Below the pieces are notes generated by a model, which was not told where the DNA came from, made no database searches, and saw only the letters and a list, made by a program, of their open reading frames with translations. From positions 59,210,001 to 59,274,000 of the forward strand of contig NC_042999.1 of assembly GCF_006345805.1 (NCBI RefSeq): a stretch of 64,000 bases of DNA. The letters are read 5' to 3'. Origin of the DNA: Octopus sinensis. Taxonomy: Eukaryota. The position numbers were made by a program, and so were the translations under genes. Shown piece after piece: positions 21,639 to 59,620 of the stretch (the stretch's first letter is position 1; the number at the start of each line of letters is the position of its first letter).

Positions 21639-21647
21639 TATCTCGAA

Positions 21648-21877
21648 GGCGGCGAGCTGGCAGAAACGTTTGCACGCCGGGCGAAATGCGTAGCCGTATT
21701 TCGTCTGCCGTTACGTTCTGAGTTCAAATTCCGTCGAGGTCGACTTTGCCTTTCATCCTTTCGGGGTCGATAAATTAAGTACCAGTTACGCACTGGGGTC
21801 GATGTAATGGACTTAATTCGTTTGTCTGTCCTTGTTTGTCCCCTCTGTGCTTAGCCCCTTGTGGGTAGTAAAGAAAA
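21648..21877 (+). mobile_element. tRNA-derived SINE, family B, well-preserved copy
   Basis: GGCGGCGAGCTGGCAGAAACG head, GAGTTCAAATTCC B box, GTCGACTTTGCCTTTCATCCTTTCGGGGTCGATAAATTAAGTACCAG central domain, CCCCTTGTGGGTAGTAAAGAAA tail. Confidence 0.9.
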
Positions 21878-21894
21878 AAAAAATATATATATAT

Positions 21895-30467: not shown

Positions 30468-31100
30468 ATTGGTTTCAAATTTTGGCACGAGGACAGTAAT
30501 TTCGGGGGCAGGGGAGGGATTAACCGATTATATCGATCGAATGTTCAACTTATACCTATTTTATCAACCCCGAAAGGATGAAAGGCGAAGTAGACTAAGC
30601 TAAATTTGAACTCAGAAAGTATATGGCTGACGTAATGCCGCTAAGCATTTTGCCCGGCTTGCTAACGTTTCTGCCAGCTCACTGCCATGCGTATGCATAA
30701 AATATTCTTTTCTACTCTAGATATAAAGCCCGAAACTTTTGGGGGAGTGTGCCGGTCCATTAGATCGACCCCAGTACTTAATCTATTGAACCCAAAAGGA
30801 ATTTGAACTCATACACTAAAGTCAGACAAAATACCGCTAAGCTTTTTGCCTTACGTGCTAATGTTTTTTTTTATTTCTTTACTACCCACAAGGGGTTAAA
30901 CACAAAAGGGACAAACAAGGACTGACAAACGGATTAAGTCGATTATATCGACCCCAGTGTGTAACTGGTACTTATTTAATCGACCCCGAAAGGATGAAAG
31001 GCAAAGTCGACCTCGGCGGAATTTGAACTCAGAACGTAGCGGCAGACGAAATACGCCTACGCATTTCGCCCGGCGTGCTAATGTTTCTGCCAGCTCTCCG
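30468..31100 (-). mobile_element. Three adjacent family B SINE copies
   Basis: Reverse-complement matches; 30870-31100 is near-consensus. Confidence 0.85.
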
Positions 31101-32463
31101 AATTAAATTGAAAGTGTCTTTGTTTTTCCTATTGTTTACGTATGATTAAAATCATCCACATAACATACCTTTATTAATAACTAATTGCCAGGAAGCATAA
31201 TTTTGACAGCTGCAATGAGCTGTCGCTCATTAAACATAGTACAGACCGTGGTACACGGCATCTCAGCTTATTAATATTTATATTGTGCACAAGACACTCT
31301 ATACGTGTGGAATTTACGCGTTAAATATTTATCTGTTAGTTAATATTTGCGTTGAAACCATGAAGACTTTTATTCTTCTCCACCAATGAGAATATTTTGT
31401 CGTGACTTCGTTCGTTAATCCTACTAATCGTATTTGCTTAGTGTCGGCCGAAAATTTCGGATTTTCCTTCAATGTGTAAAATGAGATGTAAATTTATATA
31501 CTCCTGATTTAGGTAAAAACTAGTGAGAATAGACATTTACTTACCTCTTGGAGGACGCAATGATAAATACGCCAGTCAACACAAAATCAAGAACCACTAT
31601 AACATAGGCACACATGAATGACGCTGTAAATTACCCTCTTGTGTAGCAGTGTCGAATCTATAGTTTTCAATACTTGATTTTTTCTGCTGTAATTTGTATT
31701 GCGTAGTTTTCTCCTGACACAATTTTCTTGTCTATTTTTGCAATGGGAGACCTATATTTATCACGTACAATTAAATACCTTGTGCTTTCTTTGCATTTTC
31801 AGTTTTGTCATTGTGTTGTTCGATTTCTTTATTTTTCGAGAGTTTCCTCGGCTTCTTCGTTTCTTTCTTTTTCTTTCCTTTCATTTTCGTATTCCTTCTC
31901 TCCTGAGTTTGGCTTCTATTTTTGCTGGTGTTTCCTCTTGCCGTCGTTTTACTGCACTTCTCACCAATTGACATCAACAATTGATTTTTTTTCTTGTATT
32001 AATATTCATTCTCTCTCTACAGTTAGATGTCAAACAGCCCCTGTATTCTAGGAGAAAAGTCTCCTTCCATCTGACGAAATGTTTAATATTGAACGTTTAA
32101 AACGCTGAGTTGCTGTACTCCTAAATTTAACTAGATTTACTCCGTGCACTACTTTCTGCCTTCTTTCATCGATGTGTTTTATGTAATTTAAATATGTAAC
32201 TTTCGAAATAGGAATAAGTGATATTTCCAAACCATTCAAATAACGAAAAGGCATAATCAGTCGTATACTATGGTAACAATAGACCAAAGAGTAAATGACA
32301 GAAACAGAAAATAAATTATTAGCAGCGTATTTCAATAATAAAAATAGTTAATGAGAAGAATAAATGTACAATTGTTCACCCCAACTCAGAGTATGTTTTT
32401 TTTTTATTTACCAATGACTAAATTACCCATAAGAGTGGGTAAACGCAACAAGACACACACCAG

Positions 32464-39794: not shown

Positions 39795-40313
39795 CAAATA
39801 CTGAGAGGACACAGATAGTGTGTCTATAGCCAGCCGGGGGAGATATCTTCCTGGGGCTACAAACTACAGTAGCATCCACCCTTATGGGTTAGCCATATTC
39901 AAATGGCAAATATTCGCCACGATGTTACCGCTACTGTTTATAACTCGCTCTGAGATTTATCATTGTTTGATTTCACTTTTTCAATATCAGTGTCAATGGA
40001 CACTGGAAAAAGTATATGTATTTGTGAAGGGATCTGACTTCTCGTCGACAACCATGTTTGTCACACGCTGATGAAAGGTAAACACCTTGAAACTCGGGTA
40101 CGTGTGTATCATGTGTTGAAGACGGGGAGGATGACTCCCCTTCACAAATACTGAGAGGGCACAGATAGTGTGTCTATAGCCAGCTGGAGGAGATATCTTC
40201 CTGGGGCTACAAACTACAGTAGCATCCACCCTTATGGGTTAGCCATATTCAAATGGCAAATATACGTCACGATGTGTTACCGCTACTGTTTATAACTCGC
40301 TCTGAGATTTATC

Positions 40314-40316
<3 letters not shown>
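39795..40316 (+). mobile_element. Retrozyme-like / Penelope pLTR-like element, 1.5 copies of a ~350-nt unit
   Basis: Direct repeats 39795-39964 and 40145-40316 flank a canonical hammerhead; ends in (TA)n; no meaningful ORF. Confidence 0.8.
40062..40106 (+). ncRNA. Type I hammerhead ribozyme (minimal)
   Basis: CACACG-CTGATGA-AAGGT(AAAC)ACCTT-GAAA-CTCGGG-TA-CGTGTG: perfect 6-bp stem I, 5-bp stem II, complete core; predicted cleavage after GUA at 40100. Confidence 0.9.
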
Positions 40317-41460: not shown

Positions 41461-42568
41461 ACACAAACATAGATACAAACACACACATACATACATATTT
41501 ATATATATATATATATATATACATATATATGTATGTATATATTTATACATGTATTTATATATATGTATATATATATATATACACACACATATGTATACGT
41601 ATATATATATATACATGTATATACACACATATATATATAAATGTATATATACATACATATATATATATATACGTATGTATATACGTATATATATATATAC
41701 ATACACATATCTACACATATGTATATACATACATAAATATATACAAATATATACAGGCATATATACATATACATATATATATATACATATACATATATAT
41801 AAACATACATATATATACATTTATATATACATATATATATACATACATATATATACATATACAATGCGTTCTAATGAATTTTCCCACCGTCTAGGCTTAA
41901 AAAAGCCCTTGTTGTTGGATTCTTTGTCCTCTCTTTTACTGTTTTTATCTTTATTTGTACTGACTTTTCTTTATTTGTATTGCTTTTACGTCCTGTTCTT
42001 GTCACATTTTTTTAGCCCTCCGCAAATTTTTTTTATTTAATTCATTTGCGGGAAGGGCTGTTTCAGCGTAGTCGTGTTTTGCCCTTACCTTCGAAACACG
42101 CAATAAGTCGAAACAGGGGCAGCTGTTGTTTGTCTTGTACTCTGTTTTTTGTTGTTAAAAAAGTCCGTTTCCTTGTTTTGTTTCTATGTTTTCGTTTCTC
42201 GCTGTGTTCTACTTTTATTTGTGGTGTCCTGTACTCATATATGCATGTATATATACATATATATGTGCGCACATACATATATATGTGCGCATAGACGCAC
42301 ATAGAGATATAAGCATGCGCAAACAAGACATACAATAGAAATACAAAATGGCTGACAGTTAGTAAAGAGAGACACAAATAAGAAAGAAGAAAACAAAGGA
42401 CCACTGATGCTGTCATAGGAGTGTGACGAAAGAACTCTGGCTGAAATAAGATTAAGATTAATGTAAAAAATAGATAACAAAATAACACCAACTATATAGT
42501 GCGTGTGTTTTTATTGGCTAAACTGGCAAAATGACCATTCCGAAATATAACAATATATATATATATAT

Positions 42569-42687
42569 CCACGTGACCACGTGACCGACCAGACCATCAG
42601 ATGTTGTTACACATCGCTGGTCACAATGCGTTCGCATTGTTTTAGCCTTCGAATGACGCCACCGCGCTGGCTAAGCGAGCAGGCCAA
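42569..42687 (-). mobile_element. Isolated GC-rich retroposon 3'-tail-like fragment in (TA)n
   Basis: About 120 bp GC-rich island with hairpin ACAATGCG(TT)CGCATTGT and a tandem CACGTGAC end, flanked by (TA)n; strand inferred from the tandem tail. Confidence 0.45.
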
Positions 42688-42695
42688 TATATATA

Positions 42696-42740
<45 letters not shown>

Positions 42741-42744
42741 TATA

Positions 42745-43319
42745 TATAAATTTATAAATAAGGGTGAAAATTGATATTAATTTAACAATACCATTAATTT
42801 AACACCGAGTGGCTTAGCACAAAAAACTAGTGAGAAAATACAAATTTATACATAAATTATTAGAGAGTTACCACTATGTGGATAGCTCTAGTGCTAAAAA
42901 TAGCTCCGAAAGTATAGCCACAGAAATGATGTTTCCAACTAGAAATAACATTACGGTTAACGGAAGGAAAGTGAAACATAACGAATAAATAGATTGACCC
43001 TGAACAATTGTTTCATTACTAATGTAATATGTAATTTTACTTACATAAACATCTATAAATCATCAGCAGAGGTTTGTCTTAAATACAATTTATTAGACCA
43101 ATACGAGCGTCAATTACACGTGCGGTTTAACCAATTGCATTTTTAGTTATGCCTCAAAATTCCCCGCGAAAGGCATGCTAAGACTCGTTGGAAACGTATG
43201 CTGCATCAAATAAAATATTTACTGCCGCATAATTATAAATTTATAAATGAGGGTGAAAAATTGATATTAATTTAATAATACCATTAATTTAACACCGAGT
43301 GGCTTAGCACAAAAAACTA
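42745..43319 (-). mobile_element. Retrozyme-like / pLTR-like element, ~490-nt unit with ~85-nt terminal redundancy
   Basis: Direct repeats 42745-42829 and 43234-43319, (TA)n on both sides, hammerhead motif in the middle on the minus strand. Confidence 0.75.
42998..43071 (-). ncRNA. Type I hammerhead ribozyme motif
   Basis: Minus strand CTCTG-CTGATGA-[long stem II with TATGTAA/TTACATA, mismatched at its base]-GAAA-CAATTG-TT-CAGGG; palindromic stem III, GUU site. Confidence 0.75.
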
Positions 43320-43462
43320 TGTATATATATGTATATATATATACATATATATATATATAATATATATATATATGTATGTATAAGGTGGAAAAGGAACACA
43401 CGGTTGATATATATGAAAAAACAAGTCAAAAATAGAAAATGCTAAAATAATTTTATAGTGAA

Positions 43463-43510
43463 CATTTCAGTACCGGTTTCGGTCATTTTGAGACCTTTTC
43501 AACTGTAACG
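43463..43510 (-). ncRNA. Minimal hammerhead ribozyme variant with U3:A8 core
   Basis: Minus strand CGTTACAG-TTGAAAA-GGTC(TCAAAAT)GACC-GAAA-CCGG-TA-CTGAAATG. Confidence 0.7.
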
Positions 43511-44204
43511 ATTAAATAATTAAATTTAGAAAAATTAGAAGAAAAGTTTTTTTAAAAGAATATTTCTATAGTAGTGTTCAGATTTAAGTGGCATTCTGCC
43601 TTTCTCTGACTCCCTTGTATGCACTTGTGTGTTGGAGGTCGTTGTGAGTTCTTGGTAGGGTAGTAGAGGAAGAAGGCTGGTGATGAAAGGGGGTGGGAGA
43701 ATCTGGGAGTGCCCTGATGGTCGTATTTTGAATGGTCAGTGGCGGCTGGCAGTCTCAGTTCAATTCAGGAGAATATTTATATTGACAGGCTTGTTTATAG
43801 AATTAGCGTAGGTGTTATACTAAAAAACATTAGTGACAAAGTTAAGGGGTAGGAGGTGGAGAAGTAGAAGAAGAAGAAGAAGAAGATGACGATGTTGATG
43901 ATGATGATGATGAAGAAGAAGAAGGAGAAGATGACGATGATGGTGATGGTGGTGATGATTATGACGACGATGATGATGATAATGATGATGATGATGATCA
44001 GGGCACTCCCAGATTCTCCCACCCCCTTTCATCACCAGCCTTCTTCCTCTACTACCCTACCAAGAACTCACAACGACATCCAACACACAAGTGCAAACAA
44101 GGGAGTCAGAGAAAGGCAGAATGTCACTTAAATCTGAACACTACTATAGAAATATTCTTTTAAAAAAACTTTTCTTCTAATTTTTCTAAATTTAATTATT
44201 TAAT

Positions 44205-44252
44205 CGTTACAGTTGAAAAGGTCTCAAAATGACCGGAACCGGTACTGAAATG
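44205..44252 (+). ncRNA. Inverted copy of the U3:A8 hammerhead variant, GAAA mutated to GGAA
   Basis: CGTTACAG-TTGAAAA-GGTC..GACC-GGAA-CCGG-TA-CTGAAATG. Confidence 0.55.
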
Positions 44253-44314
44253 TTCACTATAAAATTATTTTAGCATTTTCTATTTTTGACTTGTTTTTTC
44301 ATATATATATATAT

Positions 44315-46626: not shown

Positions 46627-46657
<31 letters not shown>

Positions 46658-47035
46658 ATTTTTTGGGAAAATTTTCGGTGAAAATTTTCGAAAAATTTTT
46701 GGTGACAATTTTCGAAAAATTTTTGGGTAAAATTATCGGTGAAAATTTTCAGAATATTTTTGGGGAAAATTTCCGTGAAAATTTTCGAAAAAGTTTTGGG
46801 GGACAATTTTCGAAAAATTTTTGGGAAATTCTCGAAAAATTTTTGGGTAAAATTCTCGGTGAAAATTTTCGAAAAATTTTGAGATAAAATTTTCAGTGAA
46901 AATTTTCGAAAAATTTTTGGGGAAAATTTTCGGCAAAAATTTCGAAAAATTTTTGGATAAAATTTTTGGTGAAAATTTTCGCAGTTTTTGGGGAAAATTT
47001 TCGGTGAAAATTTTGGAAAACGTTTTGGGAAAAAA
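46658..47035. repeat. A/T-tract minisatellite built on GAAAATTTTC / TTTTCGAAAA palindromes (unit about 23-37 bp)
   Basis: Repeated GGGAAAATTTTCGGTGAAAATTTTCGAAAAATTTTT variants. Confidence 0.9.
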
Positions 47036-53902: not shown

Positions 53903-54059
53903 TATATATATGAAGCAATAAAGATTCAAGTTAATTTAAATGAATTTACTTGAATATGGTACCTAACTTAGATGCACCAAAAAAAAAACTATACTGTTTT
54001 AACAATACAGTAATGTGGGGTGATTATAAGCGAGAAAGAAGCAACAAGAATGGATAGGT

Positions 54060-54150
54060 TTTTAGTACAATCGTTTCATACAAGGACAGGCTTTATTAAA
54101 AGTTGTAAAAATTACAGCATATAAACGTGTCCCGTACTCATCAGCTAAAA
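54060..54150 (-). ncRNA. Type I hammerhead ribozyme (left-arm copy)
   Basis: Reverse complement of 54879-54969. Confidence 0.8.
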
Positions 54151-54878
54151 TACATGTGAGTTCTCTAGACATCCTAGTGGTTGAGGCTATACTCATGAAG
54201 TAATGTAGATAATTAAGTAACATAAACAGATTTCCAAAGTTCATTAAAGTTCTTTAAAGATGATGTACAGTCTTATCACAGAATTTAAAAAAAGTTCTAA
54301 TAGCATCACAGAGAAGGTGACCTAATCCATAGAGCACATATGAATTTCCAGAGATATGATGAGGGATTACATACTCACAGAAGACAAATTTATCCATTGT
54401 TAATCACAACGAGGTGGGTCTCAATTCCTGCTTATTAGCATTACAGAGAGGGTGAATTAATCCTTTGTATAGATGCACAATTTCCAATGGTGTAGATGTA
54501 AGTTTCCAGAGAAATGAAGAGGAATTTCATATTCACAGGCGATAAATTTATCAATGGTTGAACACAATGAGGTAGGTATCAATTCTTGTTATATGATTAG
54601 GTATTTGCCACATTAATCACATTACTGCTATTTACAAGAGGCTGTAGCTATTTTCAAGTATGTAGCTATTTAGCTGTAGCTATTTTCATATGTGCTCTAT
54701 GGATTAGGTCACCTTCTCTGTGATGCTATTAGAACTTTTTTAAAATTCTGTGATAAGACTGTACATCATCTTTAAAGAACTTTAATGAACTTTGGAAATC
54801 TGTTTATGTTACTTAATTATCTACATTACTTCATGAGTATAGCCTCAACCACTAGGATGTCTAGAGAACTCACATGTA

Positions 54879-54969
54879 TTTTAGCTGATGAGTACGGGAC
54901 ACGTTTATATGCTGTAATTTTTACAACTTTTAATAAAGCCTGTCCTTGTATGAAACGATTGTACTAAAA
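54879..54969 (+). ncRNA. Type I hammerhead ribozyme (right-arm copy)
   Basis: TTTTAG-CTGATGA-GTACGGGACA(long loop)TGTCCTTGTAT-GAAA-CGATTG-TA-CTAAAA; 6-bp stem I, about 10-bp stem II, GUA site at 54963. Confidence 0.8.
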
Positions 54970-54999
54970 ACCTATCCATTCTTGTTGCTTCTCTCTGGC

Positions 55000-55095
<96 letters not shown>

Positions 55096-55472: not shown

Positions 55473-55514
<42 letters not shown>

Positions 55515-55566
55515 AGTGAATGGAATAAATGGAGTTGAACGAAGATTGTACAGAATACCTTTTATT

Positions 55567-55652
55567 ACATTCTACACATGTTTCGAAGGCCACAAATTTC
55601 CAAATTCTGTTTAAATAAGGGTACCATATTGCGGCTTTCTCTTCAGGAGCAT
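55567..55652 (-). ncRNA. Type I hammerhead motif (left-arm copy)
   Basis: Minus strand ATGCTC-CTGAAGA-GAAAGCCGCAA...TTGTGGCCTTC-GAAA-CATGTG-TA-GAATGT; stem I imperfect. Confidence 0.65.
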
Positions 55653-55713
55653 CTTCGTTTGAATTGCTGTGCCTCTGTTATGTTTTGTCCTGTCAACGGA
55701 ATTCCTGTTTTTT

Positions 55714-55793
55714 TTCCTGAAGAGAAAGCCGCAATATGGTACCCTTATTTAAACAGAATTTGGAAATTTGTGGCCTTCGAAACATGTGTAGAA
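55714..55793 (+). ncRNA. Type I hammerhead motif (right-arm copy)
   Basis: TTC-CTGAAGA-GAAAGCCGCAA(loop)TTGTGGCCTTC-GAAA-CATGTG-TA-GAA; stem I only 3 bp. Confidence 0.65.
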
Positions 55794-56038
55794 TGTAATA
55801 AAAGGTATTCTGTACAATCTTCGTTCAACTCCATTTATTCCATTCACTAATAATATTAAACTTCAATTATCCGCTCCAACGCACGGTTGCAACACCAAAT
55901 GGTCTTATCTCCAACCGTGCTGTTTTCCGCTGTGATTTTTGCTACCCAGGTATCGGTTAAACCTTTGAATAATCTGTTACAAGAAAATTCATCTTTCTAT
56001 TTCAACAAATATATATATATATATATATATTATATATT

Positions 56039-58534: not shown

Positions 58535-59620
58535 ATATTTATTTGTTTATTGCCCACAAGGGGCTGAACATAGAGGGGACAAACAAGGACAGACAACGGG
58601 ATTAAGCCGCTTACATCGACCCCAGTGCGTAATTGGTACTTATTTAATCGACCCCGAAAGAATGAAAGGCAAAGTCGACCTCGGCGGTAAAGACAGACCA
58701 AATACCTATTTCTTTACTACCCACAAGAGGTTAAACACAGAGAGGACAAAGAAGGATATACAAACGGATTAAGTCGATTATATCGACCCAAGTGCGTAAC
58801 TGGTACTTATTTAATCGACCCTGAAAGGATGAAATGTAAAGTCGACCTCGGCGGAATTTGAACTCAGAACGTAGCAGCAGACGAAATACGGAGACGCAAT
58901 TCGCCCGGTGTGCAAATGATTCTGCCATCTCACCCCCATGGATATTGGCAATCTCTTATGGACTTGGATGTAGCTTAGCCACAAACTAAGAGACAACCCT
59001 TTTCTACTCTAGGCACAAGGCCCGAAATATTGGGGGAGGGGGCCAGTCGATTAGATCGACCTCAGTACGCAAATGGTACGCAAATTTATCGACCCCAAAA
59101 GGATGAAAGGAAAAGTTGTCCTCGGCCGAATTTTAACTCAGAAGGTAAAGACAGACGAAATACTATTTCTTTATTGCCCACAAAGGGCTAAACATAGAGG
59201 GGGAAAACTGGGACAGACAAACGGATTAAGTCGATTACATCGACTCCAGTGCGTAACTGGTACTTAATTTATCAAACCCGAAAGGATGAAAGGCAAAGTC
59301 GACCTCGGCGGAATTTGAACTCAGAACGTAACGGCAGACGAAATACGGCTACGCATTTCGCCCGGCGTGCTAACGTTTCTGCCAGCTCGCCGCCTTAATT
59401 AAAAGACAATCCTAAGGCGACGAGCTGGCAAAGTGGTGAGCATGGGCGAAATACTCAGCGGCATTTTATCCGTCTTTAGATTCCGAGTTCAAATTCTCCC
59501 GAAGTCGATTTTGCCTTGCATCCTCTTCGGGGTCGATAAAATAGGAACAAGTCAAGCACTGGGGTCGATGCAGTCGAGTTATCCCCTTCATCACACTTGC
59601 TGGCCTTGTGTCAAAATTTA
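58535..59620. mobile_element. Cluster of family B SINEs (four or more on minus, one on plus)
   Basis: Repeated CCCACAAG...AACAAGGACAGACA..CGGATTAAG...AAAGTCGACCTCGGCGG units at about 58545, 58705, 59030 and 59165; plus-strand copy 59415-59620. Confidence 0.9.

Follow-up and report, generated by a model that had tools for sequence, protein, structure and literature searches.

A 575-base non-coding insert at positions 42745-43319 of the 64-kb window (the whole stretch of DNA analyzed here) holds 1.17 copies of a 490-nt unit with a hammerhead ribozyme motif at its center. It would work like a non-LTR retrozyme, and we regard the locus as a copy of the monomer class within a non-autonomous family that bears a hammerhead and is of the Penelope-like element (PLE) type, a category that a 2026 preprint merges with retrozymes in the part available (bioRxiv 10.64898/2026.07.22.740005). 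We consider it fairly probable that the insert is a non-autonomous retrozyme-like element mobilized by a PLE that targets (TA)n, probably by way of circular RNA.

The window consists of AT-rich animal DNA crowded with transposon remnants and with (TA)n, (CA)n, and (GATA)n tracts, and the 490-nt unit occurs in it a single time. Read in the sense of the ribozyme, the element is ordered as an 86-nt copy of the 3′ end of the unit, the full unit, and (TA)n:

43320..43382, no strand assigned, (TA)n-type tract on the 5′ side of the element, adjoining the 5′ repeat
43234..43319, minus strand, 5′ repeat in the ribozyme sense, a second, truncated copy of the last 86 nt of the unit, resembling a pseudo-LTR (pLTR)
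42830..43233, minus strand, unique part of the 490-nt unit, non-coding
42745..42829, minus strand, 3′ repeat, whose sense 3′ end is the AU-rich palindrome UAUAAAUUUAUA merging into the TA tract
42687..42744, no strand assigned, (TA)n tract on the 3′ side of the element, the putative target

A sequence-only reading had described direct repeats of about 85 bp with a period of about 490 and (TA)n on both sides, and the alignment bears this out. The repeats at 42745-42829 (85 nt) and 43234-43319 (86 nt) are 96.5% identical over 86 columns (E 8e-35), differ by two substitutions and one indel, and are spaced 489 nt start to start and 490 nt end to end. (TA)n-type tracts at 42687-42760 and 43318-43382 abut both ends of the insert. 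Its description as a terminally redundant ribozyme unit also holds: the 5′ repeat copies the last 86 nt of the unit, i.e., it is a partial tandem that forms a pLTR, and the hammerhead is central. Both flanks lie inside a TA microsatellite, so that a target-site duplication is unreadable at the insert. The unit comprises a few hundred non-coding bases with a GC content below 50% and lacks LTR, PBS, or PPT design. Its longest stop-free frame, on either strand of the circularized sequence, is 61 aa, and it contains no reverse transcriptase or GIY-YIG reading frame. A Pfam search of 13 of the 69 long frames returned no domain, a tRNA gene scan of the DNA found none, and a promoter scan, of a kind not suited to animal DNA, stayed at chance level.

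Between the terminal repeats, at 43071-42998, lies a complete minus-strand hammerhead, in which three stems connect CUGANGA, GAAA, and NUH in the order of type I:

42998..43071, minus strand, type I hammerhead motif found by motif scan
43067..43071, minus strand, 5′ strand of stem I, CUCUG, forming 5 bp with CAGGG at 43002-42998
43060..43066, minus strand, core CUGAUGA, in which some family copies have A for U at N7 and C for U at position 4
43015..43059, minus strand, stem II, 45 nt, with a U·U base, 16 predicted pairs, two internal loops, and a GUAAAA loop
43003..43014, minus strand, GAAA, 2-bp stem III within the 10-nt palindrome AACAAUUGUU, and the GUU triplet

The central minus-strand hammerhead of the sequence-only reading was thus located, together with its CAAUUG palindromic stem III (which sits within the 10-nt palindrome), its GUU site (N17 at 43003, with the predicted cut between 43003 and 43002), and its long stem II, which is predicted to fold. 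The predicted cut lies 258 nt upstream of the sense 3′ end of the element. Stem II opens with a U10.1·U11.1 mismatch and then pairs, reaching −10.4 kcal/mol when folded alone; family differences there mostly keep or improve pairing, so its closure, on which that reading had been made to depend, stands. No such hammerhead appeared in 20,000 dinucleotide shuffles of the unit with both strands scanned, and the whole window holds four motifs against a mean of 0.0 in 60 shuffles. U·U is the best-tolerated mismatch at the base of stem II (PMC3088659), and active natural precedents indicate by analogy that it is compatible with a hammerhead at 10.1-11.1. The axolotl retrozyme HHR_Amex2, with U·U and a 2-bp stem III, is cut to 22% as a monomer and much better as a dimer (PMC7229834). 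The U4C change seen in the family reduces activity in vitro (PMC3088659). Loop 1-loop 2 contacts of the canonical type I kind were not evident by eye, and the opposite strand of the unit has no hammerhead even with one core mismatch allowed. Rfam, at E up to 10, gave no hammerhead family and no other real match at the unit, a miss probably due to the long stem II; its microRNA matches were rejected as TA/CA repeats.

The fold prediction places the hammerhead in one large structure:

42929..43197, minus strand, predicted long rod carrying the hammerhead close to its tip

The minus-strand monomer is predicted to fold better than all of 100 shuffles (z = −5.2), and the plus-strand unit also exceeds its shuffles, to a lesser extent (z −3.4). 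The monomer is nonetheless predicted to misfold with the core trapped: the active fold lies 4-5 kcal/mol above the minimum and makes up about 1e-4 of the predicted ensemble in all four contexts tried. In the predicted cofold of two copies, pairing through the palindrome frees the core, and the active helices amount to −34.0 kcal/mol in the dimer versus −22.8 kcal/mol for two monomers, a gain of about 11. These models predict that cleavage of the unit would be slow and dimer dependent. Most animal retrozyme circles, by contrast, are predicted with the hammerhead left free (PMC7229834, as far as available), and its predicted blockage in the monomer counts against the retrozyme-type reading. Conservation of the fold was gauged with 38 of the 85 family differences, drawn from mixed subfamilies, set on one predicted fold, and leaving out two differences in the left repeat. 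Ten of them break predicted pairs versus 16.9 for random placement (P 0.007), or 12 when compensated pairs are counted as breaks (P 0.047), which would lend modest support to selection on structure.

Parts of the insert are present in 20 listed runs from 10 studies. The family was analyzed in contigs of four of them: two DNA runs (X3 and X1), one of which may be the window's own source, and two runs guessed to be RNA (X8 and X12), whose contigs served as family sequences only. Contigs matching the unit number 605 and 526 in the DNA runs and 59 and 8 in the other two; they come from two coded organisms, and many are less than 95% alike. The unit therefore belongs to a multicopy family, with hundreds of distinct contigs in two DNA runs. 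Among the 32 of 1,216 pieces listed, two diverged X8 contigs span the unit junction at 43233/43234, namely record 29, which covers 43006-43292 with 34 differences, and record 32, and an insertion variant at this junction recurs in X3, X1, and X8. Because diverged contigs cross the junction, the 490-nt unit length is a property of the family and not a local accident.

Within the hammerhead, N7, the free position of the core, varies across the family, as judged from the 40 differences listed of 85. U4C accounts for 21% and 25% of the depth in the two DNA runs and is also carried by the deepest X8 contig, and X3 and X1 each have three contigs in which the cut site is GUA and the matching stem I strand UAGAG. 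Read by eye, changes at 43047/43048 might let one of the stem II loops pair in a shifted register, although the script counted the one at 43047 as breaking a pair. The same 40 of 85 differences include none at position 10.1; a diverged sister sequence in X12 (loose end 43049) keeps the core, and U at 10.1, in register, and one loose end of 14 nt in X8 hints at G10.1 in a further relative. Both repeats of the insert carry G (42807/43297), whereas A makes up 93-100% of the depth at 42807 in three runs; the shared G fits one template or one source locus for both repeats. RNA editing was dropped as an explanation of the sense A-to-G differences, as most were found in the DNA runs too. In metagenome, viral, and genome contigs, a 21-nt motif of the unit had no match; 23 metagenome loci with the 18-nt core motif were set aside as chance, none extending beyond 24 nt.

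Loose ends, where contigs leave the reference, revealed how copies terminate. Among 24 of the 191, sense 3′ ends at 43239, 43245, and 43256 (equivalent to 42750-42766) enter TA-type microsatellites that differ from the flank of the insert at 42745-43319. Sense 5′ ends fall at 43319, 43316, 43301, 43045, and 42840, the last continuing into a 15-nt inverted piece and then TA. There are also two opposite-strand joints, one of which lies in a hairpin and may be an artifact. These 24 of 191 ends suggest that the family has a 3′ end fixed in TA-type microsatellites and 5′ ends that are variable and sometimes inverted, so the free permutation of genomic copies implied by the sequence-only reading gives way to a pattern in which only the 5′ end appears to vary. 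Three joints in DNA contigs go back from 43311, 43312, and 43296 to about 42821-42834, i.e., roughly one unit, hinting either at copies longer than the insert or at an assembly path through the repeat. Partial tandems, which make the pLTR in PLEs, 5′ truncation, and inversion are the typical insertion pattern of these elements (PMC8557442, in part), and the ends of the 490-nt family suggest the same pattern. One unit position differs between the repeats, being A at 42760 in the terminal repeat and G at 43249 in the junction repeat, and two loose ends of other copies show the same split (A beside the TA flank, G at the junction). If this were general, which these few cases leave tentative, the two repeats would not be copies of one circle position.

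The preferred account, mobilization by a (TA)n-targeting PLE probably through a circle, adds inferred or predicted biochemical steps to the observed anatomy, family, and part of the end pattern. A source locus with at least two tandem units would be read through on the minus strand, and two hammerheads, paired via the 10-nt palindrome, are predicted to cut at GUU and release a 490-nt monomer, which a host ligase may close into a circle as in other retrozymes. The reverse transcriptase/GIY-YIG nuclease of a PLE would nick a TA tract and prime at the AU-rich palindrome, 258 nt past the cut, the putative priming point at the sense 3′ end. Synthesis would then cross the re-joined cut site, round the circle, and stop at a variable point; a stop 86 nt into the second turn would yield the terminal repeats and central ribozyme seen here. 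As a hammerhead-cut linear monomer ends at the cut site and the insert runs through it, the template was presumably a circle, a multimer, or an uncut transcript. With its one hammerhead, the insert could not itself release a unit-length monomer. An active non-LTR retrozyme is defined by two or more consecutive units with complete hammerheads, and the locus, which has one hammerhead, is therefore not classed as such.

A rather unlikely, though serious, alternative is a non-autonomous PLE that moves as linear RNA: a read-through transcript would be primed at its 3′ end in (TA)n, and the pLTR would stem from a jump of the reverse transcriptase to a second RNA, the proposed origin of pseudo-LTRs. 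The hammerhead would then be a pLTR motif retained by descent, either weak or serving to trim precursors. This would suit the observation of a 1.17-mer only, the predicted misfolding of the monomer, and the frequency of U4C in the family. In the same direction point the Naiads and non-autonomous Chlamys elements such as MRC1, which form pLTRs mostly without hammerheads (PMC8557442, in part), and the eight of nine predicted Xenopus retrozyme dimers that stayed uncleaved (bioRxiv 10.64898/2026.07.22.740005, in part). However, the rare allele in both repeats, the whole-unit fold with z −5.2, and the fixed junction would be expected from a circle, although one source locus explains them as well, and the core remains in register in the diverged X12 sister sequence.

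Very unlikely is that a longer autonomous PLE gave rise to the insert as a rare event at this locus alone, by internal deletion or by two random truncated pieces that came to adjoin. Such an origin could account for the summed contig depth, which does not equal copy number and which, in the DNA runs, peaks over the 3′ 170 nt and drops beyond about 42915, as well as for loose ends that leave the reference at 42910 in X8 and X12. Against it, overlapping contigs of other copies, from two coded organisms, span 42773-43292 continuously (X8 records 25 and 29, X12 record 9), and no coding remnant is present, given the 61-aa longest frame. The sequence that leaves at 42910 still resembles the unit by eye and therefore looks like a sister subfamily. 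An endogenized viroid-like replicon that copies RNA to RNA would agree with the viroid-like size and with both polarities folding better than shuffles, but it is highly improbable in view of the missing opposite-strand hammerhead, the absence of any Rfam ribozyme, and the many genomic copies with apparently PLE-type ends. Least credible is a miniature LTR element (a TRIM or LTR retrozyme) with 85-bp LTRs, which direct repeats at both ends of a short non-coding core might evoke, because the repeats lack TG...CA ends in either orientation (ends read from the sequence), the hammerhead is type I and lies outside them rather than being the type III motif in LTRs that, with TG...CA ends and a 4-bp duplication, marks such elements, and 5′ ends appear to vary among copies.

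In the available parts of the literature, several element types come close to the 490-nt unit, each with differences. Metazoan non-LTR retrozymes are likewise non-coding, AT-rich, self-paired, and multicopy, with one type I hammerhead and no LTR features (PMC7229834; bioRxiv 10.64898/2026.07.22.740005). HHR_Amex2 shares with the unit its stem II base, 2-bp stem III, and tetraloop (PMC7229834). Solo monomers are common in metazoan families, and 490 nt falls within the 51-972 bp of the preprint (bioRxiv 10.64898/2026.07.22.740005). In contrast, metazoan retrozymes form tandem arrays rather than a 1.17-mer, their circles measured 170-400 nt in 2020 versus a longer unit known here as DNA, and their stem II has about 4 bp versus 45 nt (PMC7229834); the hammerhead of the octopus unit, unlike theirs, is predicted to be blocked in the monomer. 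Minimal or small-palindrome hammerheads of metazoan PLEs share a palindromic helix III suited to dimers, a short helix I, a longer helix II, and low expected activity, but they retain G10.1-C11.1 and lie in the repeats on either side of a coding frame, whereas the 490-nt motif lies between the repeats; circular templates have been proposed for more-than-unit PLE copies (PMC4209133). MRC1 of Chlamydomonas, a non-autonomous PLE, similarly mimics an LTR element with a short non-coding unit and a pLTR-type repeat. Elements of its type have 3′ sequence in common with a known autonomous family, a partner not found for the 490-nt unit in the sequences searched, and hammerheads are missing from most Chlamys elements (PMC8557442). 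Elements of this kind have already been described in other animals; a stem II of 45 nt and the long cut-to-end distance are unusual, not unique. A report of a cephalopod retrozyme or hammerhead was not found in the literature searched, whose scope ended short of the supplements of PMC7229834 and the 2026 preprint, Repbase, and Dfam, and neither "ribozyme" nor "retrozyme" occurs in the text and supplement of a 2026 O. vulgaris repeat paper. The 490-nt family is probably a cephalopod addition to retrozyme-type elements.

The available parts of the literature leave the enzyme that moves animal retrozymes, and the priming of the circle, as unresolved (PMC7761336; PMC7229834), and link vertebrate retrozyme families to PLEs by sequence only (bioRxiv 10.64898/2026.07.22.740005). 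Hydra-clade PLEs are our first candidate helper, as a lead rather than a result. They seem to share with the unit and its family a (TA)n target, the target of nearly all 25 families, a sense-strand hammerhead upstream of the 3′ end, partial tandems, and inverted 5′ pieces (PMC8557442, in part). Their hammerheads frequently have U·U at the base of stem II (14/25) or a GUU site (10/25; both in 8/25; PMC8557442 File S2, by eye), although U·U also occurs outside Hydra elements. On the other side, they carry a reverse transcriptase/nuclease frame that the unit lacks, their stems II have 3-7 bp versus 45 nt (PMC8557442), and the 14 families for which the cut-to-end distance was computed span 29-152 nt versus 258 nt here. 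In octopus, Hydra-1_Obim (Octopus bimaculoides) and three Naiads target (TA)n; stem II of Hydra-1_Obim begins with G·U instead of U·U (PMC8557442), and the core motif of this family is absent from the 64-kb window. Motifs of the unit had no exact match in the PMC8557442 supplement as available, where line breaks can hide matches, and neither there nor among the window elements was a sequence link to an autonomous PLE found.

The 490-nt insert has company in the window, where a relaxed scan detected six hammerhead motifs in five elements. The four elements besides the insert are:

39795-40316, plus strand, 350-nt unit with repeats 39795-39964 and 40145-40316 (170/172 nt), hammerhead at 40068, GUA site
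43407-43718 and 43997-44308, 312-nt inverted repeat immediately to the right of the 490-nt insert, with a U3-A8 hammerhead variant, intact at 43502 (minus strand)
54025-54344 and 54685-55004, 320-nt inverted repeat, 99% complementary, with a hammerhead with a 60-nt stem II per arm
55510-55860, inverted-repeat element adjoining a TA tract, with a hammerhead-like motif at 55717, 53-nt stem II, and 3-bp stem I

A frame in the inverted repeat at 43407-44308 ends in KYSPELN, which we take to be possibly the tail of a GIY-YIG domain. The U3-A8 core has been described for PLEs (PMC4209133, in part). In four of the five elements the sense 3′ end runs straight into TA, as does the inverted arm of the fifth, and two are long inverted repeats (a third by eye), the other PLE signature, so that TA-targeting PLE activity is plain in this genome. 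The 350-nt unit had been called unrelated in sequence to the 490-nt unit yet identical in design. Both points hold: the alignment score is 18-19 against a shuffle mean of about 20, and the 350-nt unit likewise combines a partial tandem, a hammerhead in the middle, and a sense 3′ end in (TA)n. That end lies 216 nt after the cut; the 350-nt unit folds with z −7.9 and is inserted at the end of a Tc1/mariner-like remnant (recognized by eye). A stretch AUUUAU(A/C)AUU is common to the end of the 350-nt unit and the junction of the 490-nt unit and may be chance in AT-rich DNA. The 320-nt inverted repeat at 54025-55004 runs into (TA)n 37 nt after the cut, a typical PLE end with an inverted copy. At 41862-42560 lie two more TA-flanked pieces with partial hammerhead-like words (e.g., CUGAUG...GAAA near 42404), which the hammerhead scan did not accept and which are possibly decayed PLE ends. 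The window further contains a degenerate 12-13-nt tandem array of the TTTTTGGGGAAAA type at 46657-47034, whose minus strand has an open frame of 283 codons, and several copies of a dispersed SINE-like repeat of about 235 nt (21640-21883, 30867-31106, and 58540-59398), which points to an octopus host.

The readable, apparently fixed 3′ end, the microsatellite target, and the long cut-to-end distance of the 490-nt family make the choice between circular and linear RNA testable from genome copies alone. It is possible, rather than probable, that this is a cephalopod retrozyme family with a Hydra-type hammerhead, in which the reverse transcriptase always enters the circle at a single AU-rich palindrome distant from the ribozyme and the circle is copied into (TA)n. 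If true, a helper clade and a priming site would be named for an animal retrozyme, and this genome would hold several unrelated families of the same build.
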